Assembly (NCBI GenBank): GCA_041940025.1
Contig: JBGTSY010000009.1
Location: forward strand, 9,110-73,109
Direction of reading: 5' to 3'
Source of the DNA: Thiotrichaceae bacterium
Lineage (GTDB): Bacteria > Pseudomonadota > Gammaproteobacteria > UBA5859
Length of the DNA: 64,000 bases
The notes under the pieces were generated by a model. That model was not told where the DNA came from, did not search any database, and saw nothing but the letters and a program-made list of their open reading frames with translations. Positions 2,032 through 64,000 of this stretch are shown piece by piece. Position 1 is the first letter of the stretch; each line of letters begins with the position of its first letter. The translations under genes were made by a program, and so were the position numbers.

Positions 2032-3501
2032 TTACCCGTTGGGTTTAGATAATCCTTGCAATGGCCGATCTGCCAAGATTAACGCCATAGCTAAAAGCAA
2101 TAGTGCACCGTTTATAGATAGCAGGTGTGACTGGTTTACCATTTTCGGATGGATAAACCCGTAGCCGATTACCAGTAAAATAATTAATGCAGTAGTCAGA
2201 AGCCGAAGCAGACGATTAGATTGATGTTGCTGGGAATTTTTTAAACTAAATAATAACGCAACACTTAAACTCACACTGAAAACAATTGTGGGTTCTAAAT
2301 CTGCGATTAAATTTGCTATTGCAGCCATACTCAGTGCTGGCGGCGTTCCCCACACAATGCCGTTCCAGATGCGAATGGTGCCAGTGGGGCAGGCGGATTT
2401 AGCTAACCATATATTGATCCCGCTGACGCACACAGCCGTTAGCGCGAGGCCGAGGAAGAAATATAAAAACTTCACTTCGAGGCCGCCAAATTGACCGAAA
2501 TGAAGACGATAAACTGAATAAGCGATTTGCCTGCCGATAGGCCCATCGGAAAGCTGTTGATGACCAAGAAAATTACCCTCGGCGCTATAGCGATACATTT
2601 CTGAGTAAATTAAACGACCGGGTAGGGTCGCGGCGATTTCCATATACTGCTGCTCGGTACCGAGCTTATGGACAACAAAATAGATGGGCGTCGCCTCGGA
2701 CTGATGTTGGGCTAGGTGCTGAAACGCAGTCTCGATATCGAGATGTGTTGAAGCGTTTTCAATCAGGGGATCACCGCCATAAACCTCTTCCCAAACGGCT
2801 TGTGGTTTCCCATCGTAGTTAAAATGGGCAATAGTCATGGCTAATGGCCCAACTAAGCCGAAAAATGCGCCAGTTAGGGCGATCATCAGATGAAAGGGTA
2901 ATCCCCACACCGATAGTCGATTATGGATGTCGGTTTGCTCCAAACGTCGACTACCGCCTAGACGAAGTTGAAAGGCATCTTTAAATATACTGGGGTGGGA
3001 CACGATTCCCGATAGGATTAAACTGATCAACATCACGCCCAAAATGCTGACCAAAACCATTCCCACATCATGGGGCAGATGCAAATAGTAATGGAATTCC
3101 CGTAAAAAATGCGCCCAGCCTTCATTGACCTGCTGGGCAAAACTACCATCTTGGTTGAGCCACCATTCCTGTTCGTCCGCAGAAATATGACTGCGGGGCA
3201 ACTCTCTGCTGGGCAGCACAATATAGACTTGCTCGGCGGGTTTTGTTACCCCTTGCTGGTATTGATGCAGTGCTTGCGCCATGGCAGCGGTAGTGAACTG
3301 TTTGTACTCTTGCACCTCGGGCTGTTGCCAACGCTCAAACTCAGTGGCGAAAACCACCAATGTGCCCGTCAAACAAATAAAGTACAAAAAAACCCCGGCA
3401 CTCAACCCCACCGCAGAGTGGGAGGCCAATGCGCGTTTAACTAGGTTTGGGGAATATTTAATCATGAACTTATCCTTGAAGGATGAAAGCGGAGAGTCCA
3501 A
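2032..3501 (-). CDS. PepSY-associated TM helix domain protein (iron-regulated membrane protein)
   Basis: 'HSAVGLSAGVFLYFICLTGTL', 'LHYYLH', 'HNRLSVWGLPFHLMIALTG' and 'LHFG' His motifs. Divergent from a TBDR. The true start may be slightly downstream of the ORF-track start. Confidence 0.88.
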   Translation of the reverse strand: MDSPLSSFKDKFMIKYSPNLVKRALASHSAVGLSAGVFLYFICLTGTLVVFATEFERWQQPEVQEYKQFTTAAMAQALHQYQQGVTKPAEQVYIVLPSRELPRSHISADEQEWWLNQDGSFAQQVNEGWAHFLREFHYYLHLPHDVGMVLVSILGVMLISLILSGIVSHPSIFKDAFQLRLGGSRRLEQTDIHNRLSVWGLPFHLMIALTGAFFGLVGPLAMTIAHFNYDGKPQAVWEEVYGGDPLIENASTHLDIETAFQHLAQHQSEATPIYFVVHKLGTEQQYMEIAATLPGRLIYSEMYRYSAEGNFLGHQQLSDGPIGRQIAYSVYRLHFGQFGGLEVKFLYFFLGLALTAVCVSGINIWLAKSACPTGTIRIWNGIVWGTPPALSMAAIANLIADLEPTIVFSVSLSVALLFSLKNSQQHQSNRLLRLLTTALIILLVIGYGFIHPKMVNQSHLLSINGALLLLAMALILADRPLQGLSKPNG

Positions 3502-18407: not shown

Positions 18408-19260
18408 CAGGGGGGTTCCAGTGTCGATGATTAATCGCATAAGCTTGTATCTTGCCAATAAAGGGTAATGCAAGAATACCCGGCAACCAAATCACCTGTT
18501 TGTGTTCTCGGATGTGCTGGATACCGATACGCATCTTTTCATGGCCCACATGAGGTTGAGCAATGTAGGTGCCAAAGAGCCTATCCCAGCAGGATAGATT
18601 AAATCCGAAATTGCTATTGGTTTCGTTGTCCGCCACAGAGTGGTGAACTCGATGCATGTCTGGCGTGACAATAAAACAGCGCAACACCGCATCCATAGAC
18701 TTGGGTAAACGCACATTTCCATGGTTGAACAGGGACATGGCGTTGAGCAGGACTTCAAATATTACTACCGATACTATGGGCGGGCCAATGAGGATAATGG
18801 CAGCGAATTTAATCGACATGGAGAATAATATTTCTACTGGGTGGAAGCGGCTGCCCGTGGTGACATCATAGTCGAGATCGGCATGATGCACACGATGGAA
18901 ACGCCAAAAAACAGGAATGGCGTGAACCATGACATGTTGTAGATAGATAACCAAATCCAGCGCCAATATTGATACCAGAATTTCGATGGGTAAGGTGAGT
19001 GCTATTTGTTGCAGCATGCCCAATTGATTCTCGCTTGCATAGACAGCGATGCCCACTGCTGCGGCAGGAAAGATGAAACGTAATATAAATGTATTGAGCA
19101 ATACTAGACCAATATTATTTGTCCAACGCGCTAATTTGGAAACAGTTAAGGCTCGCCTCGGTGCGAGGATTTCCCAAATTGCCATGAGGGTAAAAACAGC
19201 AAAGAAAAAGCTGAGCCTGATGGATACTTCCTGTGTGGTAATGAAGGTTTCCCAGTTCAA
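18397..19260 (-). CDS. Sterol desaturase/fatty acid hydroxylase family protein
   Basis: His boxes 'HRVHH', 'RFHP', 'FNHGN', 'HRVHHS', followed by 'SNFGFNLSCWDRLFGT'. Confidence 0.9.
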   Translation of the reverse strand: MNWETFITTQEVSIRLSFFFAVFTLMAIWEILAPRRALTVSKLARWTNNIGLVLLNTFILRFIFPAAAVGIAVYASENQLGMLQQIALTLPIEILVSILALDLVIYLQHVMVHAIPVFWRFHRVHHADLDYDVTTGSRFHPVEILFSMSIKFAAIILIGPPIVSVVIFEVLLNAMSLFNHGNVRLPKSMDAVLRCFIVTPDMHRVHHSVADNETNSNFGFNLSCWDRLFGTYIAQPHVGHEKMRIGIQHIREHKQVIWLPGILALPFIGKIQAYAINHRHWNPPDEH

Positions 19261-38988: not shown

Positions 38989-41900
38989 TGCGCATTGTGA
39001 TTGATATGCAGGGTGCGCAGACAGCCAGCCGTTTTCGTGGCATTGGCCGTTACACCATGGCTTTTGCTCAGGCTGTGGTACGGAACCGAGGCGAACACGA
39101 AATCATCCTCGCCCTCTCGGGTCTATTTCCTGAAACCATCGAGCCCATTCGCGCCGCCTTCGACGGCCTGCTGCCGCAGGAGAATATCCGCACCTGGCAC
39201 GCGCCCGGTCCGGTGCAGGAGGCGCAACCCGGCAACGATGCCCGGCGCGAGGCGGCGGAACTCATCCGTGAAGCCTTTTTGGCCAACCTCCAGTCCGATG
39301 TCATCCATATCACAAGCCTGTTCGAGGGCTATGTGGACGATGCCGTCACCAGCATTGGCCGATTTGACAGTGCAATGCCGGTGAGCGTCATTCTGTATGA
39401 CCTCATTCCACTGCTGAATCCGGATCACTATTTAAGACCCAATCCACGTTACGAACAGTACTACCTACGCAAGGTCGAGTGCCTCAAGAAGGCGGCGCTG
39501 CATTTGGCGATTTCAGAGTTTTCCGGTCGGGAGGGTATAGACGTCCTCGGTACACCCGACGGTAAAACCATCACCATCTCCACGGCGCTGGATAGTCACT
39601 TCCAAGCCAAAACCATCAGAGACGAAACCGCCAGTGAACTCCGTGCCAGGTTCGGCATCACCAGGCCCTTCGTGCTCTACACCGGTGGTGCGGATGAGCG
39701 CAAGAACCTGCCGCGCCTGATCGAGGCTTACGCCGCGCTGCCAGCAAGCATTCGCGAGACTCATCAGCTGGTTTTTGCAGGTCAGATGCATGAGGTTAAA
39801 ATCGCGCAGTTCAAACACCGTGCCCGTTCAGTGGGGCTCAAGGATGACGAACTCGTTTCCACCGGGTATGTCACTGATGAAGATCTCGTCCAGCTTTATC
39901 ACCTCTGCCAACTCTACGTCTTCCCCTCATGGCACGAGGGCTTCGGTCTACCGGCGCTGGAGGCCATGGCCTGCGGTGCGCCTGTCATCGGGGCCAATAC
40001 CAGCAGCCTACCGGAGGTGATCGGATTCGAAGAGGCGCTCTTCGATCCGTTCGATGTCGAGGCCATCAGCGCCAAGCTCACCCAGGCGTTGGAAGATGAA
40101 GCATTTCGCAATCGCCTGCATGAACATGGCAAGAATCAAGCGGAGAAGTTTTCCTGGGACGATACCGCCAAACGCGCGATTGCAGCGTGGGAGAGCATGC
40201 CAGGCCGGAGTCAGGCAGAGTATCTGGACCGATCACTGGCCCACAACCGGCTTCTCGCAGCGCTCGCAAAACCGCTCGCGCACGCAGGCGAGCCCGAGTT
40301 GGTGGCGGTGTCGCATTGCGTCGCGCAAAACGAACGGGCAGGCATCGAACGCCAGTTACTGCTCGATGTCTCCGAACTGTGCCAGCATGATGCCGCCCAA
40401 CGGTCCGAGGCCATGCTGAATTCCGTTATCAGTAGCCGCTCTTGGCGGATCACTAGGCCGCTGCAAAAACTGATGCAACTGTTCAAATGCTTGTTTAGGC
40501 TTCCCGTTCGAATGGTTGTCGGTATGGTGCGATTGCCCAAAAGGGTCGCCCGGTGGTTTTTGACAAAGCTCATTGCCTTTGTAATGCGGCTTGACGGGCT
40601 CAAGCATCGCGCCCGGCGATGGCTTTATCGCTATCCGAGGCTGGAGGCACATCTGCTTGCCTTCGCCAGGGCGTGCGAGTTGATTCATGATCCAACGCCT
40701 GCCCCGTCACATCCGGCGGAGGCCGAAACCCTCACACCCCGGGCGCGGCAGATCTATGAGGACCTGAAAGCAGCCATTGAGAAAAACAAACAGGAGGCCG
40801 CTTGATGCGCATTGTGATTGATATGCAGGGTGCGCAGACCGAAAGTCGTTTTCGTGGCATTGGCCGTTACACCATGGCTTTTGCTCAGGCTGTGGTGCGG
40901 AATCGCGGCGAACACGAAATCATTCTCGCCCTCTCGGGTTTGTTTCCCGAAACCATCGAGCCCATCCGTGTCGCCGTCGACGGCCTGCTGCCGCAGGAGA
41001 ATATCCGCATCTGGCACGCGCCCGGCCCAGTGCAGGAGGGACAACCCGACAACGATGCCCGGCGCGAGGCGGCGGAACTCATCCGTGAAGCATTTTTGGC
41101 CAGCCTCCAGCCCGATGTTATCCATATCACAAGCCTGTTCGAAGGCTATGTGGACGATGCCGTTACCAGCATTGGCCGATTCGACACTGCAACGCCGGTG
41201 AGCATCATTCTGTATGATCTCATTCCACTGCTGAATCCGGATCACTATCTCAAGCCCAATCCACGTTACGAGCAGTACTACCTGCGCAAGGTCGAATACC
41301 TCAAAAAGGCGGCTCTGCATTTGGCCATCTCCGAGTTTAGCCGTCAGGAGGGCATAGACGCCCTCGGTTCCGCCGACGGTAAAACCATCGCTATCTCCAC
41401 GGCGCTGGATAGCCACTTCCAACCCCAAACCATCAGTGACAAAGCCGCCAGTCAACTCCGCGAAAAATTTGGCATCACCCGACCCTTCGTCCTCTACACC
41501 GGTGGTGCGGATGAGCGCAAGAATCTGCCGCGCCTGATCGAGGCTTACGCCGCGCTGCCCGCCAGCATGCGTAAGGTCCATCAGTTGCTCTTCGCCGGCA
41601 GGATGCCTGAAGGCGATATTGCACGCCTCAAGGATATTGCCCGCACCGCAGGCTTAAAGAGCGACGAACTCCTGTTCACCGGTTACGTCTCTGACGAAGA
41701 TCTGGTCCAGCTCTACAATCTCTGCCAGCTCTACGTCTTCCCCTCGTGGCACGAAGGCTTCGGTCTGCCGGCGCTTGAAGCCATGGCCTGCGGTGCGCCT
41801 GTCGTCGGCGCCAATACCAGCAGCCTGCCGGAGGTGATCGGATGCGAAGAGGCGCTGTTCGACCCGTTCGATGTCGGGGCTATTACCGCCAAGCTCACTC

Positions 41901-42214
41901 GGGCCTTGGAAGATCAAGTATTTCGCAATCGCCTGCGCGACCATGGCCTGAATCAAGCGAAGAAGTTTTGCTGGGACGAAACCGCCAAACGCGCGATTGC
42001 GGCGTGGGAGAGCATGCCAGGCCGGAGTCAAGCAGAGTATCTGGACCGATCACTGGCCCACAACCGGCTTCTCGCAGCGCTCGCAATACCGCTCGCGCAC
42101 GCTGGTGAACCCGAATTGGTGGCGTCGTCGCATTGTGTCGCGCAAAACGAAAGCACTGGCATCGAGCGCCAGTTATTTCTTGATGTTTCCGAACTGTGCC
42201 AGCATGACGCCGCC
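38575..42214 (+). repeat. Tandem duplication of about 1.82 kb (38575-40397 and 40398-42214)
   Basis: 38914-40397 aligns with 40731-42214 at a constant 1817-bp offset with high identity. The leading ~335 bp of each unit is more diverged but shares the SEAML-SVISS-SWRIT motif. Confidence 0.9.
38985..40805 (+). CDS. GT4 glycosyltransferase fused to a methyltransferase-type C-terminal tail (chimeric)
   Basis: 'RIVIDMQGAQT..RFRGIGRY' and 'FVFPSWHEGFGLPALEAMACG'-type motifs. The C-terminus 'QRSEAMLNSVISSRSWRIT...LTPRARQIYEDLKAAIEKNKQEAA' parallels the upstream methyltransferase tail. Confidence 0.9.
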   Translation: MMRIVIDMQGAQTASRFRGIGRYTMAFAQAVVRNRGEHEIILALSGLFPETIEPIRAAFDGLLPQENIRTWHAPGPVQEAQPGNDARREAAELIREAFLANLQSDVIHITSLFEGYVDDAVTSIGRFDSAMPVSVILYDLIPLLNPDHYLRPNPRYEQYYLRKVECLKKAALHLAISEFSGREGIDVLGTPDGKTITISTALDSHFQAKTIRDETASELRARFGITRPFVLYTGGADERKNLPRLIEAYAALPASIRETHQLVFAGQMHEVKIAQFKHRARSVGLKDDELVSTGYVTDEDLVQLYHLCQLYVFPSWHEGFGLPALEAMACGAPVIGANTSSLPEVIGFEEALFDPFDVEAISAKLTQALEDEAFRNRLHEHGKNQAEKFSWDDTAKRAIAAWESMPGRSQAEYLDRSLAHNRLLAALAKPLAHAGEPELVAVSHCVAQNERAGIERQLLLDVSELCQHDAAQRSEAMLNSVISSRSWRITRPLQKLMQLFKCLFRLPVRMVVGMVRLPKRVARWFLTKLIAFVMRLDGLKHRARRWLYRYPRLEAHLLAFARACELIHDPTPAPSHPAEAETLTPRARQIYEDLKAAIEKNKQEAA

Positions 42215-44479
42215 ACCGGTGTCCAGCGGGTGGTGCGGAGCTATCTGAGATATTTGTTGCAGTCTCCTCCCGCCGGGTTTCGAGTAGAGCCGGTTTTTGC
42301 GACACGTGAGGAGGGCTATCGTTATGCCCGCCATTTTACCCTGCGTTTCCTGGGCCTGGACGCGAGCGCCGCTGAGGATGCGCCCGTTGTCTGGCACAGA
42401 GGCGATGTTTTTTTCGGCCTCGACATGCAGCACCATGTGCAGTTGGCGCATGTACCTTTCTATCGGCAGCTTATTAACGAAGGTGTTGTGGTCAAATTTC
42501 TTATTCACGACCTGCTCCCAATTCAGCTTGTCGACCTGTTCAAGGACTCGGACGGCAAAGAACTGCACGAGCAGTGGCTGGCCATGATCGCCGCCACCGA
42601 TGGTGCGATTTGTGTTTCCAAGGCCACCGCCGATACTTTCGAAGCCTGGCTCGCTGAGCATGCCGTCCCGCGATCGCCAGACTTTCATACCCGTTGGGTA
42701 CACAACGGGGGTGATATCGATGGCTCCAACCCCTCTCGCGGCCTGCCGGACGATGCACAGGCGGTGCTGCGCACCTTGCGCGAACGCCCCACCTTTTTGT
42801 GCGTCTCCACTATCGAACCGCGCAAGCGGCAACAACAGATCCTCGAAGCAGTTGAACAACTCTGGCAGCACGGTGACGATGTCAATCTGGTGCTCGTCGG
42901 CAGGCAGGGTTGGAAGACCGAATCTCTCGTTGAGCGACTGCGGACCCATCCCGAGAAGGGGCGCCGCCTGTTTTGGCTCGAAGGCATCAGTGACGAATAT
43001 CTGGACAAGGTCTATGCTGCCAGCACCTGCCTGATTGCCGCCAGCCTCAACGAAGGCTTCGGTCTCTCGCTCATAGAGGCAGCACGACACGGAATTCCCA
43101 TCATCGCACGCGATATTCCGGTGTTCCGCGAAGTCGCCGGCGACCATGCCGATTACTTCCAGTGTGAATCCGCACAAGACCTGTCTGACTTCCTTCGCAT
43201 TTGGTTGGAAAAATATCGCGCCGGACAGCACCGGCCCTCCACCGGTATGCCCTGGTCCACATGGCAACAAAGTACCGAGAAGCTCAAGGTGGCTCTGATT
43301 GGGCAAAATTACCCGCGCCGCCAACTGCTGGTGGATATCTCCGAACTGGTGCAACGTGATGCCAGAACGGGCATCCAGCGCGTCGTACGTAATATCCTGA
43401 AGGAGTGGTTGCTCAACCCACCCAATGGTTATCGCGTCGAGCCGGTCTATGCCACGGTGGACCAGCCGTACCGCTACGCGCGCAGCTTTACCGCGAGATT
43501 CCTTGGCATTCCAGCAAATGTTCTACGGGATGAGCCCATAGACTACGCTGCCGGTGATGTCTTTCTAGGACTCGATTTGCAGCCTCAGGTTGTCGCTGCG
43601 AAACGAGCGTTTTATCAGGCATTACGCCGGCAGGGAGTTAGGGTCGAATTCGTTGTCTACGATCTGTTGTGTGTGTTGATGCCGCAGTATTTTGTCCCGG
43701 GGGCAGCAGACGGATTCACACCCTGGTTGGAGGTCGTTGCCGAGAGCGACGGTGCCGTGTGTATCTCGCAATCTGTCGCCGGGGAACTTGACGATTGGGT
43801 CGGCAAGAACAGCCCTGAGAGACAGCGCCCCTTCAATATCGACTGGTTTCATTTGGGGGCAGAGTTCGATCACTCACACCCCACCAAAGGCCTGCCATTA
43901 GATGCGGAGTTTACTCTGGCCCGGCTTCAATCGCGGCCAACCTTCCTTATGGTGGGTACTCTCGAACCACGTAAAGGCCACGCGCAAGTACTCGATGCCT
44001 TCGAACAGCTCTGGCAGTCAGGTGCAGATGTTAATCTGGTCGTCGTGGGTAAGCAGGGTTGGATGGTCGAGCAACTTGTCGGAAGACTCCACGCTCATCC
44101 CGAGCGGGACAAACGTCTCTTCTGGCTCGAAGGCATTAGCGATGAATACTTGGAAAAGGTCTACGCCGCCAGCACCTGCCTCATCGCTGCCTCCTACGGT
44201 GAAGGCTTCGGCCTGCCGCTCATCGAAGCGGCGCAGCACAAATTGCCCATCATCGCCCGGGATATTGCTGTATTCCGCGAGGTGGCGGGAGAGCATGCCT
44301 GGTATTTCGATGCGGCTTTACCTGAGGAACTGGTCCATTCGGTGAAATCCTGGTTGGAACTATATGAACGTGATGCACATCCGAGGTCGGAATCCATGCG
44401 GTGGCTGACGTGGAAGGAAAGCGCCAGTCAGGTATTGAGAAACATCCTTCCGAGTGTTCGTGGGTCGCACACTAGTTGA
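40802..44479 (+). CDS. Three-domain GT4 glycosyltransferase (WbdA-like polymerase candidate)
   Basis: 1225 aa with three EGFG(L/P)-x-EA motifs. Domains 2 and 3 are related ('RQL..D.SEL...DA.TG.QRVVR', 'EPRK', 'LEGISDEYL.KVYAASTCLIAAS'). Confidence 0.9.
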   Translation: MMRIVIDMQGAQTESRFRGIGRYTMAFAQAVVRNRGEHEIILALSGLFPETIEPIRVAVDGLLPQENIRIWHAPGPVQEGQPDNDARREAAELIREAFLASLQPDVIHITSLFEGYVDDAVTSIGRFDTATPVSIILYDLIPLLNPDHYLKPNPRYEQYYLRKVEYLKKAALHLAISEFSRQEGIDALGSADGKTIAISTALDSHFQPQTISDKAASQLREKFGITRPFVLYTGGADERKNLPRLIEAYAALPASMRKVHQLLFAGRMPEGDIARLKDIARTAGLKSDELLFTGYVSDEDLVQLYNLCQLYVFPSWHEGFGLPALEAMACGAPVVGANTSSLPEVIGCEEALFDPFDVGAITAKLTRALEDQVFRNRLRDHGLNQAKKFCWDETAKRAIAAWESMPGRSQAEYLDRSLAHNRLLAALAIPLAHAGEPELVASSHCVAQNESTGIERQLFLDVSELCQHDAATGVQRVVRSYLRYLLQSPPAGFRVEPVFATREEGYRYARHFTLRFLGLDASAAEDAPVVWHRGDVFFGLDMQHHVQLAHVPFYRQLINEGVVVKFLIHDLLPIQLVDLFKDSDGKELHEQWLAMIAATDGAICVSKATADTFEAWLAEHAVPRSPDFHTRWVHNGGDIDGSNPSRGLPDDAQAVLRTLRERPTFLCVSTIEPRKRQQQILEAVEQLWQHGDDVNLVLVGRQGWKTESLVERLRTHPEKGRRLFWLEGISDEYLDKVYAASTCLIAASLNEGFGLSLIEAARHGIPIIARDIPVFREVAGDHADYFQCESAQDLSDFLRIWLEKYRAGQHRPSTGMPWSTWQQSTEKLKVALIGQNYPRRQLLVDISELVQRDARTGIQRVVRNILKEWLLNPPNGYRVEPVYATVDQPYRYARSFTARFLGIPANVLRDEPIDYAAGDVFLGLDLQPQVVAAKRAFYQALRRQGVRVEFVVYDLLCVLMPQYFVPGAADGFTPWLEVVAESDGAVCISQSVAGELDDWVGKNSPERQRPFNIDWFHLGAEFDHSHPTKGLPLDAEFTLARLQSRPTFLMVGTLEPRKGHAQVLDAFEQLWQSGADVNLVVVGKQGWMVEQLVGRLHAHPERDKRLFWLEGISDEYLEKVYAASTCLIAASYGEGFGLPLIEAAQHKLPIIARDIAVFREVAGEHAWYFDAALPEELVHSVKSWLELYERDAHPRSESMRWLTWKESASQVLRNILPSVRGSHTS

Positions 44480-56894: not shown

Positions 56895-57374
56895 TGTTTA
56901 GTATTTTTTTGCTCTAATTGTGCTTCAGCAAAACATAGGTCGCACACATTTCATTTCTATTTGCCCACTGATTTGCCTAAAGCCCGCTTTTCGAACCGTT
57001 TTTTGAAGGTCGGAGTGAGTGGAGGCTTTGATGGTGATTTCTTTGACTTTGTGACAACTGCTGCAAATTAAGAATTGCGGTACCCCATGTACATGATCAC
57101 AACTAATGTGTGAACAGGCAACATACTTATTAGCAAGTTCGAGTTTATGTACTAAAGATTCTGTTTCTAAAAATTCTAGTATTCGGTACACCGACATCGC
57201 AGGAATATTGGCATCGTAGCGTTCTTTGCAACTATCGATCAACTCATAAGCAGAAAGCGCTTTGTCAGAATGAATGAGGCTAGATAATACCTGTTTGCGC
57301 CTTTCTGTTAGGCGCACACCATGGGTGTGACACTGCTTTTCTGCCTGTTCCAGGATTGTGTCTATTTGTTTCAC
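56891..57374 (-). pseudogene. zur: Fur/Zur-family repressor with a C-terminal frameshift
   Basis: 'RLTERRKQVL', 'AYELI', 'SVYRILEFL', 'HKLELANKYVACSH', 'FLICSSC'. The current frame stops at 56925 (MKCVRPMFC*). Adding TG restores MKCVCDLC...KQ*, ending at 56891. Confidence 0.75.
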
Positions 57375-57961
57375 GATATGGATCCAAATTTAATCACCCG
57401 GTTTTTAGGAGTCAGGGTTGTTGAGCCTTGTTGTGAAGCAGAAACCCACATGGCTTTTATGCGGTGAATCTTTGGAAATCTATCAAACAACTTAACCGTA
57501 ATCGCAGATAGTTCAGAAAGTTGATTACAATGGTAGCGGTAAGTGACGGTGATTTCACTGTGACTATTATCGGCGTTCTGCTGAGGGTGGTCGTGTGATT
57601 TAGAATGATTGTGTTTCTCTTTATTATCACTCCCGTCCCTAAGCGATAAAAGATCTGTCTGGGTGTGAGTGTGCTGACAGTCTCCTCCTAAAATTGACAC
57701 TATACCCCTGTGATCTTGAAGCTGTTCTAAGGCAGATTCGACTGCTTGAATATCAGTGCTAGATTGAGCAGGGTGCTCAAAACCCACAATATCAATCGCT
57801 GGGGACTTTAATTGAGCCTCAATCGTTTTTCCCTCCATGGCTATGGTAAGTACGGATAGACCATGAACGTGGGCATCGGCACTGGCTAGAGCCTGGCTGG
57901 CATGAACACTTAGGGTAAAGAGGAGCGCTAGGGTTCTAAGTTTAGATATTCGAATGTTCAT
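57371..57961 (-). CDS. DUF2796 periplasmic zinc-binding protein (ZrgA-like)
   Basis: 'AHVHG', 'SPAIDIVGFEH', His-rich loop, 'HSEITVTYRYHC'. Confidence 0.88.
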   Translation of the reverse strand: MNIRISKLRTLALLFTLSVHASQALASADAHVHGLSVLTIAMEGKTIEAQLKSPAIDIVGFEHPAQSSTDIQAVESALEQLQDHRGIVSILGGDCQHTHTQTDLLSLRDGSDNKEKHNHSKSHDHPQQNADNSHSEITVTYRYHCNQLSELSAITVKLFDRFPKIHRIKAMWVSASQQGSTTLTPKNRVIKFGSIS

Positions 57962-58026
57962 TTGTAAATTTGTTGTCTTCTTGTCAGTACCAGTCGTATT
58001 GATATGCGTTCAGATAGTGAAACGGA

Positions 58027-58044
58027 GATATGTTACAACATATC
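58027..58044. promoter_or_regulatory. Palindromic operator upstream of zrgA (candidate Zur box)
   Basis: GATATGTT-AC-AACATATC, with perfect 8-bp arms, about 65 bp upstream of the DUF2796 start. Confidence 0.6.
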
Positions 58045-58299
58045 AATTAATAGTTGAAGAGAATTTTCTAGAGTCACTGACCATCATAAATAACTACTAA
58101 GCTCAAGACCGTCTATATAGTGTCATACCTTAAGAATATAGAATAAGTAGCTACTTGTTCTCAGCTAGGGCGGTACCCAATGATACCCGATAGGCAGATT
58201 TAACAGCGCTCTGGGCTAGCTTTGACGTTTAAAATTAGATAGTTATATAAATCCAAGAGTGGGACACTGTTCAGCAATTGGCCGGTCTGGTTCTGGGTT

Positions 58300-58680
58300 G
58301 GACTCGTGCATTGAGAATCGTCGTTGCCACAGTTGCCGCGCTACCTGCTTACGGCACTCCTTCATCAGGCGAAATCGCTCACTGCCTAAATTAGGGCGCG
58401 CCATCAAATGAAGGCCATACAAAAGTAGGCTTTCACCCGTTACAGGTTCCTGACTGAGTTGATACGAACGAATCGATGTCGTGCGCGTCAATCGTGAAGT
58501 GCTTCATCTGCACTGGGTGCGGTGGACTTGTACCAATGTGGCAAAATGTGAATGCGCATCTTGGGGTCGATCGCTATCGCTGGGCGCTCGCCTGTAGAGG
58601 CGGCTTTACTGTAAATTTGTTCAATCGTCTGACTCAGATCGGATCAAGAAAGCATTTCGTTATTTTGTTCTAATCTATTA
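58300..58680 (-). mobile_element. Second IS5-family transposase relic
   Basis: The minus strand reads ...IEQIYSKAASTGERPAIAIDPKMRIHILPHWYKSTAPSADEALHD*..RF..., then QEPVTGESLL..HLM in another frame. Confidence 0.65.
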
Positions 58681-59094
58681 AGCGTCCTTTTACAGTATTT
58701 TTTATATGCATGACTTTCAAGAGTGTGCTGTTTCATTTTGTTGATTTACTATGGAGTCGTTTCATTGATTCTCATGTTTTTGCATAGATCGTATATCCTT
58801 AGAATAAGAATTCAGAATTCAATTTATTTGAATCGTTTGCATGATTAAGTATGGGTGGCACAGCTGGTAGAGTGTTTGGCGATGACGGCGCATCACCTTA
58901 TGAAGAACTGCTGACTTTTAGTTAGTCGTCTAGTTTAGAGCGGTAGTGAAACATTCCTAAACAGTAGAAGTGATATCTGTGTGACCTGTTGTATAAAAAC
59001 TATCCAGTTTCGTTGCGTATCGTTTTTTAGTTCATTCACTTTTTAAAAAGCACTATAATTTAGTGGTTAATTATGATTTTGTATCAAATCGTGG

Positions 59095-60450
59095 ATGTGT
59101 GTGATGGAAGCTGTTCCCAGTAGGCCAATACTACTAGCGGTGTCGAATTCGATAAGTGATGACGTTCGATGCAAATTATCAACCGTATTTAAAAATAGTG
59201 AATTGATTATCGATGATCCTTTAGATGAGAATAACTGCGGTCGTCGGATCAGTTATTCTTGGGGGTTTATTTATGTTCCCACTCATTTAGATAGTGCTTG
59301 GATCAGCTGGTCACGAAACCTGTTTCGGAGCAAGGTAGCTCGAAACTGGATTGCAATGTTAGAAGATGTGTTTACCGTCAACGAGCAAAAGTATCAATTC
59401 CTGTCAGTTGACACGATGGGCTACATTCAAATATTCGACGCCCTATCCGATAATTTATTTTCTGCAATCATCACACCCTGGGAACTAAATACCACAAAAA
59501 AGGAGGTTTCCCTTGGTGCCTTGGTAGGAAGAAGTGCCTCCATCGCAAGAGTCAACGAACTCATTGTGAGATTCTCCAAAGTGGATAGTCCTGTCATTTT
59601 GTCCGGAGAAACAGGAACGGGCAAAGAGCTTATCGCAAGAGAGCTTCATCGACGATCACACTACTGTCAGGGGCCTTTCATCGCTTTAAATTGTGGTGCG
59701 ATTCCAGATGAATTATTTGAAGCGGAAATGTTTGGCTACGTTGCCGGAGCATTTACAGATGCAAAAACTGATCGGGAGGGCTGGTTACAGAAAGCGCATA
59801 AAGGTACCCTATTTTTAGATGAGATCGCGGAGTTGTCACTGCGTAGCCAAGCGAAGTTGCTGCGGGTGTTAGAACGAAAAGCCGTTACGCCGATAGGTAC
59901 AAATCAATCATTTGATTTAGATGTGCGTATAGTGGCCGCCTCACATGTTGATTTACGGCAGGCGATAGTGGAAAAGAGATTCCGGGAAGATCTATTCTAT
60001 CGGCTAGATGTGCTACACATCCAAGCACCCCCGCTGAGAGAACGTAGTGAGGATATTTTATTACTTGCATCAAATATATTGAGGCAGTTATGCAACGAAT
60101 TAAATCTTCCTGTACGTCAAATCTGCTTCGAGTCACTGTTTATTCTCACATCCTATACGTGGCCGGGAAATGTGCGAGAGTTAATCAATAAATTGAAGCA
60201 AATTTGTATCTTAAGTGACGCATTGGTACTAGAAGCAAAGCATCTAGAAATTTTTGGATTACCGACATTTGCTCTCAACCAGTTCAACTCAGTACCTCTT
60301 CTTGATACGGCAATATCACGCGCAGAACTCAACGCGGTGGCTGAAGCACTAAGTGCGACAGGAGATAACATCTCAGCATCTGCGCGTTTATTGGGTGTTT
60401 CCCGAATGACTCTTTATAGATTAATTAGAAAACACAAAATCATTTTGTAA
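59095..60450 (+). CDS. Sigma54-dependent enhancer-binding activator (atypical N-terminus, AAA+, Fis-type HTH)
   Basis: Walker A 'GETGTGKE', 'GAFTDA', Walker B 'LFLDEI', 'FREDLFYRL', 'WPGNVREL', HTH 'NISASARLLGVSRMTLYRLI'. Confidence 0.93.
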   Translation: MCVMEAVPSRPILLAVSNSISDDVRCKLSTVFKNSELIIDDPLDENNCGRRISYSWGFIYVPTHLDSAWISWSRNLFRSKVARNWIAMLEDVFTVNEQKYQFLSVDTMGYIQIFDALSDNLFSAIITPWELNTTKKEVSLGALVGRSASIARVNELIVRFSKVDSPVILSGETGTGKELIARELHRRSHYCQGPFIALNCGAIPDELFEAEMFGYVAGAFTDAKTDREGWLQKAHKGTLFLDEIAELSLRSQAKLLRVLERKAVTPIGTNQSFDLDVRIVAASHVDLRQAIVEKRFREDLFYRLDVLHIQAPPLRERSEDILLLASNILRQLCNELNLPVRQICFESLFILTSYTWPGNVRELINKLKQICILSDALVLEAKHLEIFGLPTFALNQFNSVPLLDTAISRAELNAVAEALSATGDNISASARLLGVSRMTLYRLIRKHKIIL

Positions 60451-60662
60451 AGAGCGCTTGTCGACTCTCTGTTTGATTCTAGGAATGGAGATCCAAAATG
60501 AATTCGTGCGTCACTCGCTTGTCACCTTCTCTTTATTAACAAGAGATTACAAATTTACACCTTGGTAGTATTTTAGAAATTAACTATAACTATTTAATTA
60601 GGTCACAACTATGCGGTCGATCAGTAAAAATAATCGCCGGAATAAGAGTGGTGTGAATTGGG

Positions 60663-60680
60663 TGTCTCAATATTGATACA
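60663..60680. promoter_or_regulatory. Candidate upstream activator sequence (enhancer)
   Basis: TGTCTCAAT-ATTGATACA, an 18-bp palindrome with 1 mismatch (TGT-N12-ACA), about 155 bp upstream of the -24 element. Confidence 0.5.
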
Positions 60681-60833
60681 GATTAAAATAAGTATCTAAC
60701 TGATTGTTTATAAATGCTATGTTGATTTAATTGAATAAATAGATGTTTGGGTTTTTAACGGTATATTAGATATTTTGAAAAAAATCCAGTTATCTTGGCA
60801 ATATTATTATAAAAAACAATAAGATATCATTCA

Positions 60834-60848
60834 TGGCATGAATTTCGC
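60834..60848 (+). promoter_or_regulatory. Sigma54 (-24/-12) promoter
   Basis: TGGCATGAATTTCGC has exact GG-N10-GC spacing and lies 40 bp upstream of ATG 60889. Confidence 0.7.
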
Positions 60849-60888
60849 CCTCTGCGGTAACTGAGTAAAAAGTTATGGGGGCAAATGC

Positions 60889-61656
60889 ATGAAACCGGTA
60901 TTATCCATCACGGTATTCCGTAGTGCGATTACAGATCTTAACAATCTGAGTCACTCGAAATACCTAGTTGTGTTGTTCTGCTACACGATTCTAGCTAGGA
61001 CTGTTCTAGCCGGATCTGACGTCCCAACATCTCAATTATCTCCCGCTAGCCATGACACTCTCACCACTTTAGTCACTCTCGTTGGTGCAAATACCACAGC
61101 CAGTAGCCACACCAGTCGTATCGAAGGCGATTCGTTTTCCGGGGTGAGCGGTATCGTAGAAGTCAATGTCACCGGCGGTGATCTTTCCATTCAACAAAAT
61201 TCAGCTGCCATTGTGGAATCCAGTGCCTACGGATTGGCATTCGTAGAGGCCTATCAGAAACGACAAGTAGACGAGCTTAGTCGATCAACAACCAATGGGA
61301 TGCGGTCGGATGCAGCGATAAAAGATAATGCATTTGACCATGCACTCGGATTGATCATGGTAAACCAGTCCAGTGGTGGTGAGAACACTCAAGTAAATGG
61401 TGCCGCTATCGCCTTAGGAGGGCTGGTAGCTATTGGCGGCGTGCAGCTAAATGACAACACCTTGGACCAATCCTACGGTATTGCAACACCGATCTCCGCA
61501 GGGGTAGGTGACGGAGGCAGCGTGAATAACGTTGATACGACCACGATTGACCCGAGCAGTTTTACCGGCGCCAGAGGTATTTTTCTAATTAATCAAGTAT
61601 CGGGTAGAAACAATTACTCGGGCAATAGTTTTACTCTGACTACGTCTCCTAAGTAA
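60889..61656 (+). CDS. FapB-like amyloid nucleator/minor subunit
   Basis: Hydrophobic N-terminus and three imperfect repeats: 'SRIEGDSFSGVSGIVEVNVTGGDLSIQQNS', 'AAIKDNAFDHALGLIMVNQSSGGENTQVNG', 'TTIDPSSFTGARGIFLINQVSGRNNYSGNS'. Confidence 0.75.
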   Translation: MKPVLSITVFRSAITDLNNLSHSKYLVVLFCYTILARTVLAGSDVPTSQLSPASHDTLTTLVTLVGANTTASSHTSRIEGDSFSGVSGIVEVNVTGGDLSIQQNSAAIVESSAYGLAFVEAYQKRQVDELSRSTTNGMRSDAAIKDNAFDHALGLIMVNQSSGGENTQVNGAAIALGGLVAIGGVQLNDNTLDQSYGIATPISAGVGDGGSVNNVDTTTIDPSSFTGARGIFLINQVSGRNNYSGNSFTLTTSPK

Positions 61657-61742: not shown

Positions 61743-63563
61743 ATGAAATGCAAACGTTTACCTTTAGCTATTGCAGTTGCAAGCGCGATGGGCGCAGGTG
61801 TGGCAAGTGCAGACGAAGGCAATAGAGGTGACTACGAAAAGAGCAATATTCACATCGATAAAGATGTGGATGTAACCCATGAACTGCACCACAAAGGAAA
61901 GATCTATACGGCAGGAGTCGTCTTGGTGGATTCCACGGCAACGGCATTGTCTGAAGTGGAACAAAAGGTGAAGGAAAATACGTTATCTGAACAGCAAATG
62001 TTCATTGAGCCCAATTCTGAGAATCCTGTTGTGATGTTTGGAGGCAGTGTTGACGATCAAAACAGCGCTACTTTGTCTGGTAATGTGTTAAAAGGCAGTA
62101 CAGGTAACGCGGGCGTTAATATCGTTGGTGGTTCCACCAATGCTCAGCAAAACTCTGTTTCTATCGCAGAAGGCGATTCGCGCGGGCATGTAGTGGACAT
62201 ACCAATTGAGTTCAGTACTAGTGAAACCTTCAAAGACAATTACAGCGATTCAGAAACCTGGAGCACGGAGTCTTGGGATAACCACCAAGTGACCCATACC
62301 TCAGATACTGCCACCAGTAGCAGCAGTAGTTCGTTAAGCGTAGAGTTGGATATCGACGAGCATGGCGGCATGATCAATGCTGACGTGGGCGGCGCTACAA
62401 CTGTCGATGCAAGCGCGGAAGCGGGAGACGGTGTTGGGCCGGAAGGGCAGATCTCAAAATCAGTTGAAGGTAATGTCAATGGTACGGTAGAAAACAGCTA
62501 TGTGTCTGTGCAAACTTCTGGCGAATTTGACAGTAACATTGGAGGCGATGCGCACAGTGGAGAAGGTAGCAAAGATCTAAACTCTGTTTCTGCTGCGGGC
62601 GAGTTTGAGACAGATTCGAAGCTATACGTCGAGGATGGATCCATCTCCTACATGGTCGAGGGAGAAGATGAGCAATCTTGGGAAAGTGACTCCACACACA
62701 CAGATGGTACTGTCTCTGTAACGGATGGTGAGTCGTCTACCGAATATGTGGATGAGTCTGACTACTCCTTTAATACTGAGTTTGATATCAATCTGATGTT
62801 CGGTGGGGCAGCAGAGGCCGAAACCTTTGCCAAACAGAAAGTCGCATATAACCAGAATCCTTCTTCTGGATACAATATTGCTTCAATCTCCGATGACGTG
62901 GCAATGAATTTTAGCGGAAACATTGGAGTCAATGTGGTTGCTGGGCACAACAACGCTCAAGCTAATCAGTTAGCACTTGCTGAAAATGATGGGGTAATGG
63001 CTTTAGCGACTGCAACCTCTTATCAATCTGTTTATGGGAATGTCTCACAAGGTCAAGGCTATATCGCAGTTGTGGATGAAGAATATTCACTATCTGGTGA
63101 TGTCGATGGCTATACTGTTGGTTACTCAGATCAACTGGGCGATGTCTATCCAGACACATGGGAAGGCAAACCTGGGCCTAACCCACATCCGACCATCGGA
63201 AAAATGATTGGCCACAATGACATCGATAGCGATACTCAAGGTGCGCAACAAGTGGTGGTTATGGCCAATGGTACACAGAAAGTAGTACAACGTGGGTATG
63301 TATTACAACCGGGCGAATACTATCTCGCTGAAGGTGGGGCCTACGTTTACAAAGAAGTTGGCGCTGTAGACTTAGGTGAAGTCACCTTGTCTGGTACCCT
63401 CAAGCATCTTGATATTGTTGAATATCAGGTTGTAAATGATGCGTCCATCTCTGGCAATGCTTTCATGGGAGCGAAAGGCAATATCGCTGTTAACGTTGCT
63501 TCTGGTAGCGGTAATGCGCAAGGCAATGCTTTGGCTATTTCAAGCATGAATGCGCCAGAATAA
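61743..63563 (+). CDS. FapC-like major functional-amyloid subunit with very long linkers
   Basis: Signal peptide and three ~37-aa repeats (N.A.(L/I)S.....(S/K)GN(A/I)(G/A)VN(I/V)..G..NAQ.N) at about 62055, 62871 and 63432. Strong RBS (gaggag). Confidence 0.8.
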   Translation: MKCKRLPLAIAVASAMGAGVASADEGNRGDYEKSNIHIDKDVDVTHELHHKGKIYTAGVVLVDSTATALSEVEQKVKENTLSEQQMFIEPNSENPVVMFGGSVDDQNSATLSGNVLKGSTGNAGVNIVGGSTNAQQNSVSIAEGDSRGHVVDIPIEFSTSETFKDNYSDSETWSTESWDNHQVTHTSDTATSSSSSSLSVELDIDEHGGMINADVGGATTVDASAEAGDGVGPEGQISKSVEGNVNGTVENSYVSVQTSGEFDSNIGGDAHSGEGSKDLNSVSAAGEFETDSKLYVEDGSISYMVEGEDEQSWESDSTHTDGTVSVTDGESSTEYVDESDYSFNTEFDINLMFGGAAEAETFAKQKVAYNQNPSSGYNIASISDDVAMNFSGNIGVNVVAGHNNAQANQLALAENDGVMALATATSYQSVYGNVSQGQGYIAVVDEEYSLSGDVDGYTVGYSDQLGDVYPDTWEGKPGPNPHPTIGKMIGHNDIDSDTQGAQQVVVMANGTQKVVQRGYVLQPGEYYLAEGGAYVYKEVGAVDLGEVTLSGTLKHLDIVEYQVVNDASISGNAFMGAKGNIAVNVASGSGNAQGNALAISSMNAPE

Positions 63564-63578: not shown

Positions 63579-63606
63579 GAGGAGCATCGTTTACATGATG
63601 CTCCTC
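63579..63606 (+). terminator. Stem-loop after the FapC-like gene
   Basis: Perfect 10-bp stem GAGGAGCATC/GATGCTCCTC with an 8-nt loop, followed by a T-rich tract. Confidence 0.7.
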
Positions 63607-63660: not shown

Positions 63661-64000
63661 ATGTGCATATCGAATCGAAACATACATCCGGCGACAGTTT
63701 TATTGTTGCATGCGGCTCTGTTGGTCTGTCTGTCGTTTAGCTTAAGTGCAGAAGAGTCAAAAGACTCTCAGGTTGTCCTATATCACCCTTCTGGTTTTGG
63801 TGTGGAGACCAAATCAGTGGTGAGTATGCGTGATAATAAATTCGACAATCTAGTAGAACAACAGTTTGATTTTAGCTGTGGCGCCGCTGCAGCCAGCACT
63901 ATCCTACAGTACGCCTATAATATGAATGTGACCGAGTTGGATGTCATTATGGGATTATCTAAGGTGGCTAATACCGACATTGCGAAACAGAAAGGGTATT
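63661..64000 (+). CDS. C39-family peptidase (FapD-like), truncated by the window end
   Basis: Open frame from ATG 63661 with a signal-like N-terminus, then 'VEQQFDFSCGAAAASTILQY', the C39 catalytic Cys motif. Not in the ORF track because there is no stop in the window. Confidence 0.85.
   Translation, partial: MCISNRNIHPATVLLLHAALLVCLSFSLSAEESKDSQVVLYHPSGFGVETKSVVSMRDNKFDNLVEQQFDFSCGAAAASTILQYAYNMNVTELDVIMGLSKVANTDIAKQKGY

Follow-up and report, generated by a model that had tools for sequence, protein, structure and literature searches.

A predicted sigma-54 circuit upstream of a divergent, Fap-like amyloid operon in a marine gammaproteobacterium

Introduction

A 2018 review of functional amyloids described the fap operon as encoding no regulators and its regulation as unknown (PMC6173800). 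The regulation of Fap has since been worked out only in Pseudomonas fluorescens. In strain PF07, the transcription start of fapA was mapped by 5′-RACE (rapid amplification of cDNA ends) downstream of a −24/−12 element, and the expression of fapA–E falls or is lost in deletion mutants of rpoN and of brfA, a bacterial enhancer-binding protein (bEBP) gene that adjoins the cluster (PMC9207406). BrfA senses cyclic di-GMP (c-di-GMP) and is widespread in Pseudomonas (PMC13101488; SBW25 preprint). Here, a 64,000-nucleotide stretch of DNA from Thiotrichaceae bacterium is analyzed (GenBank assembly GCA_041940025.1, contig JBGTSY010000009.1, positions 9,110 to 73,109 of the forward strand; hereafter the window), in which a bEBP gene lies immediately upstream of a fap-like operon. 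On the basis of sequence comparisons, this adjacent bEBP is likely to activate a sigma-54 promoter of the operon via a palindrome at 60663–60680. The circuit concept itself is already published, and the window harbors a distant, divergent marine relative of the BrfA–RpoN–fap circuit.

The window shares several features with the P. fluorescens system. Both have a bEBP gene adjoining the fap cluster, a −24/−12 element before the first fap gene, and the same type of helix-turn-helix (HTH) DNA-binding domain. The motif TGTNNC-N6-GNNACA, found upstream of the window operon, also precedes fapA in the BrfA arrangement of a Pseudomonas locus (L058). However, there are several differences between the two. 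The bEBP gene of the window is located upstream of the operon and co-oriented with it, whereas that of Pseudomonas is found downstream of fapF on the opposite strand. In contrast to BrfA, the N-terminus of the window protein is an orphan without a detectable Pfam VpsR domain, its AAA+ core falls outside the BrfA clade, and it harbors GAFTDA instead of GAFTGA. Compared with the fap operons of Pseudomonas, the window operon lacks fapA, and its FapC is much longer.

More distant parallels are found among regulators of matrix and amyloid genes. VpsR, the master activator of vps in Vibrio cholerae, resembles the window protein in its receiver-like, non-phosphorylated N-terminal domain, its AAA+ domain, its Fis-type HTH, and its connection to the biofilm matrix. 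In contrast to the window protein, it has neither GAFTGA nor a working Walker B motif and, bound at −31 to −53, serves as an activator of sigma-70 RNA polymerase (PMC6158489). FleQ from Pseudomonas aeruginosa similarly combines a receiver-like domain that is not phosphorylated with the regulation of matrix genes, but its control of pel and psl is independent of sigma-54 and needs FleN. PspF-type bEBPs have no regulatory domain, as is the case for the fap-linked bEBPs of loci L047, L049, L050, and L052, whereas the window protein has an N-terminal domain of 135 residues. In Enterobacteria, the gene for CsgD adjoins the curli operon csgBAC and offers a further example of a dedicated transcription factor gene next to a functional-amyloid operon; CsgD, however, is a LuxR/FixJ-type protein that works with sigma-S or sigma-70 and involves neither an AAA+ domain nor sigma-54 (PMC9207406).

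The control region

The activator gene and the operon's first gene are separated by an intergenic gap of 438 bp. The features of the activator gene and of this gap are listed below.

59095–60450, + strand: sigma-54 bEBP gene, 451 aa (the database copy, P0002, starts from the ATG at 59104 and has 448 aa)
59095–59499, + strand: N-terminal regulatory domain, approximately residues 1–135; probable receiver-like (beta-alpha)5 fold, orphan in sequence
59746–59763, + strand: L1 loop GAFTDA, residues 218–223, read from the sequence as a variant of the sigma-54 contact loop GAFTGA
60325–60432, + strand: C-terminal Fis-type HTH (Pfam HTH_8) with the signature LGVSRMTLYRLxxKHxI
60663–60680, no strand assigned: 18-bp palindrome TGTCTC-AATATT-GATACA, upstream activating sequence and predicted site of the adjacent bEBP
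60681–60833, no strand assigned: AT-rich spacer (79% AT), probably a DNA-bending region, with blocks conserved in L001
60697–60709, − strand: candidate core for integration host factor (IHF), AAACAATCAGTTA, which departs from WATCAANNNNTTR at one position and lies within a conserved block
60814–60826, + strand: candidate IHF-like core AAACAATAAGATA with two mismatches, likewise within a conserved block and 7 nt upstream of TGGCA
60834–60849, + strand: predicted sigma-54 promoter TGGCATGAATTTCGCC, with the −24 GG at 60835–60836 and the −12 GC at 60847–60848

The palindrome consists of the arms TGTCTCAAT and ATTGATACA, which together read TGTCTCAATATTGATACA; it has the form TGT-N12-ACA, with 8 of its 9 pairs complementary. 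The predicted transcription start (~60859) lies ~187 bp downstream of its center. The −24/−12 element at 60834–60848, TGGCATGAATTTCGC, has the correct GG-N10-GC spacing, agrees with TGGCACG-N4-TTGCW at 9 of 12 positions, and ends 40 bp ahead of the fapB-like ATG at 60889. Between the two elements lies the most AT-rich 153-bp stretch of the window, the 64-kb mean of which is 53% AT. An earlier note, made from the letters of this DNA alone, had described the bEBP gene, the palindrome, the AT-rich spacer, and the −24/−12 element, and all four are found where it had placed them.

Taken singly, neither the palindrome nor the promoter pattern stands out from the background. The window contains nine 18-bp palindromes in which 8 or more of the 9 pairs are complementary, which is chance level (6.5 ± 2.8 in shuffles), and the loose pattern TGGCA-N6-TNGC occurs five times versus 3.2 expected, i.e., it is not rarer than chance. 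The case for a sigma-54 circuit therefore rests on position and conservation. A refined form of the operator motif, TGTCNC-N6-GWTACR, matches the window once, with 0.06 matches expected.

No perfect IHF core (WATCAANNNNTTR) occurs between the palindrome and the promoter, and the four perfect matches of the window are all outside 60681–60833. At the offset that corresponds to 60814–60826, perfect cores (AATCAATGGCTTA or TATCAATAGCTTA) are present in L047, L049, and L050, and also in L046. A role for IHF at the spacer is plausible. No structured RNA, riboswitch, or tRNA was found in 57800–61000.

Conservation across fap loci

The nearest locus, L001, comes from a gammaproteobacterial metagenome-assembled genome (MAG) labelled Thiotrichaceae UBA5859. 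Its bEBP is 66% and its FapC 82% identical to the window proteins, and its genes follow one another as they do in the window (bEBP, fapB, fapC, fapD, and fapE). When the two intergenic regions are aligned, the first ~220 columns are essentially unrelated, yet four blocks are conserved: GTGTCTCAAnnTTGATACAG, CTAACTGnTTGT, TATAAAAAACAAnAAGATA, and TGG(C/T)ATGnnTTTCGC. These correspond to the palindrome, two stretches of the spacer, and the promoter, respectively. The palindrome is retained in L001/L048, where the promoter reads TGGTATGGGTTTCGCA. Outside the bEBP–fap module, the neighborhood of L001 differs from that of the window; the gene upstream of its bEBP (L001 437–1276) encodes an AmoC/PmoC-like copper membrane monooxygenase subunit (NCBIfam E 3e-64, under the cutoff).

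Searches with the FapB-like protein led to loci L046–L052, which are Porticoccaceae MAGs and marine metagenome contigs, and in each of them a bEBP gene is found directly upstream of fapB, fapC, fapD, and fapE. Four loci of the Porticoccaceae type share a footprint of four blocks, comprising two inverted TGTC(T/G)C-N6-GTTAC(G/A) sites with a distance of exactly 45 bp between them, a perfect IHF core (AATCAATGGCTTA in L049 and L050, TATCAATAGCTTA in L047 and L052), and a promoter of the form TGGCATGG..TTTGCT. The bEBPs of L047 (2642–3610), L049 (2491–3462), L050, and L052 are PspF-like proteins of 320–330 aa that consist of AAA+ and HTH domains alone. As these bEBPs have no regulatory domain, their control must be exerted via their own expression or via a trans partner. 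In L046, the bEBP frame shifts near its 3′ end (~3200–3330), and the HTH (…SRMTMYRLLDKHKL) continues in another frame, reflecting either an assembly error or a pseudogene.

The genomic contexts of six relatives of the activator were also examined. Four of the six adjoin fap or fap-like operons with a C39 peptidase, namely, those of L053, L055 (Marinobacterium, canonical fapA–F), L057 (Duganella), and L061. PF20161 is not marked in P0003 of L056, which is a fifth relative linked to fap. The VpsR-domain relative in L060 is not linked to fap, and the relative in L059 has a classical receiver domain and belongs to an ordinary two-component system. In L058, from Pseudomonas sp. OF001, fapA–F is followed by a convergent VpsR-domain bEBP gene, which is the published BrfA arrangement. 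The region upstream of fapA in this locus contains TGGCACGACACCTGCG together with TGTTGC-N6-GATACA and TGTATC-N6-GCAACA.

Across the whole set, a bEBP gene adjoins the fap or fap-like operon in every such locus examined. In 11 of 12 loci, a sigma-54 element (at least 9/12, coding strand) precedes the first fap gene by 55–181 bp; nine loci besides the window and L001/L048 score 9/12 to 11/12. In total, 4.8 kb of fap-upstream DNA holds 12 such matches, compared with 1.5 expected from the flanks. Of 11 fap-upstream regions, 10 contain the motif TGTNNC-N6-GNNACA, 92–267 bp upstream of the −24 element, with 13 matches in 4.5 kb versus 6 in 185 kb elsewhere (~90-fold enriched). L053, L055, L056, and L058 were left out of the derivation of this motif and still hold six matches. 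Conservation of the palindrome at homologous operons, which the earlier note had put forward as a check, is borne out by L001/L048 directly and by the family motif more widely. The same motif is found just upstream of the bEBP genes of L055 (7717, Marinobacterium) and L056 (4560), which suggests autoregulation of these two genes.

The activator protein

The activator carries the motifs of an AAA+ ATPase. Pfam Sigma54_activat spans residues 143–310 over the whole profile (E 4.4e-63), and AAA_lid_14 and HTH_8 (residues 411–446) are also matched. Walker A reads GETGTGKE, Walker B is formed by D242 and E243, the arginine fingers R297, R303, and R361 are present, and every column that is invariant across 77 aligned bEBPs is retained. 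The ATPase motifs are intact, and the protein is predicted to activate sigma-54 RNA polymerase in an ATP-dependent fashion. The best-scoring solved AAA+ domain is that of FleQ (E 3e-61, ~41–43% identity), and the closest structure-backed relatives are sigma-54 activators.

The L1 loop differs from the canonical motif by a single residue. GAFTDA is found in 24 of the 120 closest bEBPs and is among the variants expected to be compatible with activation, e.g., in DVU2106 (PMC4641369); its effect was left open for VfmH by one study. The lineages with GAFTDA (the window and L001/L048) share an unusual −12 sequence, TTTCGC (window 60845–60848, L001 3715–3730), and the loci with GAFTGA mostly have TTGC, several of them TTTGCT. 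Only two related lineages are involved, and this pairing may reflect shared ancestry rather than co-adaptation.

The HTH of the activator has on average 17.7 of 27 positions identical to VpsR-domain bEBPs, compared with 11.9 of 27 for other bEBPs, and belongs by sequence to the VpsR-domain, fap-linked type, whose signature LGVSRMTLYRLxxKHxI it bears. In line with this, the palindrome site is identical at 16 of 22 positions to the DNase-footprinted proximal VpsR operator at PvpsL of V. cholerae, AGTCTTAGAATTGATGCAGATA (PMC6158489). Matches of this quality occur ~0.6 times per window in shuffles, and the resemblance matters only because it falls on a pre-specified site. Among the full-length database relatives of the activator, the closest mostly carry the Pfam VpsR N-terminal domain. 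The AAA+ core is 40–49% identical to each bEBP class.

The N-terminal domain is an orphan. An exhaustive search of 1.84 billion representative proteins with the first 140 residues returned the L001-type protein as the sole homolog. A word-index search with the domain gave zero matches, as did a profile search of PDB sequences at E ≤ 10. Alignment with hhalign to the VpsR-type N-terminal domains of related bEBPs is weak and offers a hint only (pairwise E 0.006, probability 6%). An AlphaFold2 model of the activator, built on an alignment of 77 bEBPs, has a mean predicted local distance difference test score (pLDDT) of 87, with 62–91 per ten-residue block over the core of the N-terminal domain (approximately residues 11–130). 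In this model, residues 12–128 adopt a (beta-alpha)5 receiver-like fold, and Foldseek aligns 390–414 columns to the receiver-plus-AAA+ activators NtrC4, FleQ, NtrC1, LuxO, and VpsR. Because the alignment given to the predictor included receiver and VpsR-type domains and might have imposed the fold, the receiver-like assignment is at most probable.

The acidic pocket, the Thr/Ser, and the Lys typical of receivers are missing from the domain, both in the sequence and at the strand ends of the model; phosphorylation is therefore unlikely. The non-canonical sensory N-terminus of the earlier note is apt as a description, in that a receiver-like fold without a phospho-acceptor is combined with an orphan sequence. 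The parallel with BrfA would make c-di-GMP the first candidate for the signal.

The fap-like operon

The genes downstream of the promoter are as follows.

60889–61656, + strand: FapB-like amyloid subunit, 255 aa, first gene of the operon (NCBIfam FapB E 1.3e-11, under the curated cutoff)
61743–63563, + strand: FapC-like major amyloid subunit, 606 aa (NCBIfam FapC E 5.5e-28, under the curated cutoff)
63579–63606, + strand: terminator-like hairpin just 3′ of fapC, 12-bp stem followed by the T-rich tail CATTTTATTT (−21.8 kcal/mol, z = −5.1)
63662–64000, + strand: start of a FapD-like C39 peptidase gene that runs past the window end; …EQQFDFSCGAAAAS… is collinear with L001 FapD

The FapB-like protein is 28% identical over 178 aa (E 3e-10) to the product at the FapB position in Pseudomonas sp. 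OF001, which is marked by Pfam FapBC. The FapC-like protein harbors three GN(I/A)GVN..G..NAQ.N repeats separated by long linkers, and repeats of the form GN(I/V)GVN..G..N.Q.N are common to it and to the FapBC-marked product at the FapC position in Pseudomonas sp. OF001. Over its full length, it is 46% identical to a protein of L056 that is positive for PF27129 (FapBC). In L001, FapD is matched by NCBIfam C39_FapD (E 2e-68) and FapE is recognized at E 1e-18; fapF would fall past the end of the available sequence. The window operon, whose first gene is fapB-like, has no fapA; loss of fapA is the commonest known variant of the fap operon (PMC6173800). Given the FapB- and FapC-like matches, the repeats, and the start of fapD, the amyloid operon named in the earlier note is a justified designation for what appears by sequence to be a divergent Fap system without fapA. 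The hairpin may lower read-through into fapD and may keep subunit transcripts high relative to those for the machinery.

Alternative explanations

Several observations weigh against a BrfA-like sigma-54 circuit at this locus. With 9/12 matching positions, the window promoter ranks with the weakest of the set (as do those of L001/L048 and L057), and it has C rather than T before the −12 GC. The window has one full activator site versus two in several other loci; neither a second site nor one before the bEBP gene was found in it at one mismatch or fewer. Residues 1–140 match no Pfam family at E ≤ 0.01, including the VpsR domain (PF20161). In a neighbor-joining analysis of the AAA+ core (200 bootstrap replicates), the VpsR-domain/BrfA clade is recovered without the window pair in 144 of 200 and with it in 0 of 200. 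Because the AAA+ core lies outside this clade, orthology with BrfA is not established, and that claim was dropped. Matsuyama et al. (2016) reportedly described R144, R185, N186, E330, and R334 as the residues with which FleQ contacts c-di-GMP; their counterparts in the activator are G, R, E, N, and Q, such that one of five is kept. A FleQ-like binding mode was rejected on these grounds, although the activator may sense c-di-GMP as such. Furthermore, rpoN is absent from the open reading frames of the 64-kb window, and the earlier note overstated its case in calling the sigma-54 circuit complete; the apparent dedication of the circuit to the amyloid operon, which the note also put forward, can be judged over these 64 kb only. 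Its claim that the activator acts on the amyloid operon through sigma-54 is nevertheless backed by the bEBP–fap linkage, the promoters and upstream motifs of the comparison set, and the P. fluorescens precedent.

An activator that works in the manner of VpsR could bind the palindrome and recruit sigma-70 RNA polymerase, in which case the −24/−12 match would be incidental. The HTH and the operator are both VpsR-like, and VpsR is an atypical bEBP whose partner is sigma-70 RNA polymerase (PMC6158489). The 9/12 score of the promoter, of a kind that is common in the window, also leaves room for such a mechanism. However, VpsR has no GAFTGA and a defective Walker B, whereas the window protein has GAFTDA and an intact DE pair. 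The −24/−12 element is conserved at a fixed distance in 11 of the 12 loci, and no sigma-70-like promoter was found on the coding strand of the gap (+ strand of 60451–60888). The site, ~187 bp from the predicted start, is moreover too distant for class I or class II activation of sigma-70 RNA polymerase. Recruitment of sigma-70 is, on balance, improbable.

The palindrome could instead be the operator of another regulator, either a member of the FNR/CRP family or a repressor, with the bEBP binding elsewhere or acting from solution. The conserved block extends beyond the palindrome (...GATACAG(A/G)TTAAA), and TTGATACAGATTAA at 60673–60686, which overlaps the right arm, equals 9 of 10 positions of the FNR-type box TTGAT-N4-ATCAA. 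This FNR-like overlap is partly kept in L001 but absent from the other loci. CRP was considered and set aside, as the TGT-N12-ACA spacing is wrong for TGTGA-N6-TCACA. Against another regulator, TGTNNC-N6-GNNACA recurs before fap operons wherever a BrfA/VpsR-type bEBP adjoins them, including in Pseudomonas. This explanation is about as improbable as the recruitment of sigma-70.

Finally, it is very unlikely after the comparative data that the elements are chance matches in AT-rich intergenic DNA and that the bEBP controls something else: palindrome and promoter pattern singly occur at chance frequency in the window, but both are conserved in the orthologous locus amid diverged DNA, the architecture recurs in independent lineages, and the bEBP–fap linkage holds in every fap or fap-like locus examined.

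A separate question is the origin of the activator. It has been considered that it may be a mosaic or a fast-evolving bEBP, which would have kept the BrfA/VpsR-type DNA-binding domain and operator and acquired a different AAA+ core (GAFTDA type) as well as an orphan N-terminal sensor (two proteins in public data). This possibility is a tentative one and is judged rather doubtful.

Proposed mechanism

Activation of the fap-like operon by the adjacent bEBP is built on direct observations, i.e., the sequence elements and their conservation, the bEBP–fap linkage across lineages, and the intact ATPase motifs. From these we infer binding, sigma-54 dependence in the source organism, a bending factor, and a signal. 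In the proposed sequence of events, a bEBP dimer would bind the palindrome at 60663–60680 by its VpsR/BrfA-type HTH, while sigma-54 RNA polymerase would form a closed complex on TGGCAT-N5-TTCGC at 60834–60848. The AT-rich spacer, possibly together with IHF, would bend the DNA such that the AAA+ ring, presumably a hexamer, could meet sigma-54 by means of the GAFTDA loop. Hydrolysis of ATP would then open the promoter for a transcript that starts at ~60859 and covers the fapB-like and fapC-like genes and, past the hairpin, fapD and beyond. The receiver-like N-terminal domain presumably gates this activity in response to a signal.

Other features of the window

A near-perfect palindrome, GATATGTTACAACATATC, is found at 58027–58044, just upstream of a minus-strand cluster (with 56925–57961). 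Among the products of this cluster are ZrgA, for zinc uptake, a regulator of the Fur family, a MerC-like protein, a DUF3299 protein, and a MacB-type ABC transporter, and the palindrome looks like the Zur box of a zinc-uptake operon.

The best match to the sigma-54 consensus in the window, TGGCACCTACATTGC, is located at 18560–18574 on the minus strand, inside a gene for a fatty-acid hydroxylase and ~90 bp upstream of one of the VTT/DedA family. This match is probably incidental, the alternative being an intragenic sigma-54 site.

The region 34333–44479 is devoted to the export and modification of glycans. It encodes a phosphomannomutase, an ABC ATPase of the Wzt type that has a carbohydrate-binding domain at its C-terminus, an FkbM methyltransferase, a 606-aa GT4 protein, and a 1225-aa protein with three GT1-type domains. 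The cluster probably serves the production of O-antigen or capsule by an ABC-transporter-dependent route.

The transhydrogenase PntB of the window shares no more than 74% identity with its counterparts in marine Gammaproteobacteria of the Cellvibrionales type (Azotimanducaceae, Halieaceae, Pseudomaricurvus, and Zhongshania), and the species genomes that were searched include no close representative of the source organism.

Implications

For the window alone, the outcome is confirmatory and not surprising. Its wider meaning is that the control of fap-type operons by a bEBP and sigma-54 would reach past Pseudomonas to uncultured marine Gammaproteobacteria, Porticoccaceae, Marinobacterium, and Duganella-type variants. 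The lineages appear to have a cis-architecture in common, consisting of one or more TGTNNC-N6-GNNACA sites, an IHF-like site that precedes the −24 element by 7 nt, and a sigma-54 promoter, and the sensory domain alone varies. Were the activator such a mosaic or fast-evolving protein, a signal different from c-di-GMP would gate amyloid output in this marine lineage, and the fap switch would keep one cis-architecture while swapping its input domain (VpsR-type, none, or orphan). The motif TGTNNC-N6-GNNACA could be used to predict Fap regulons, and the variants of the input domain form a natural comparison set.

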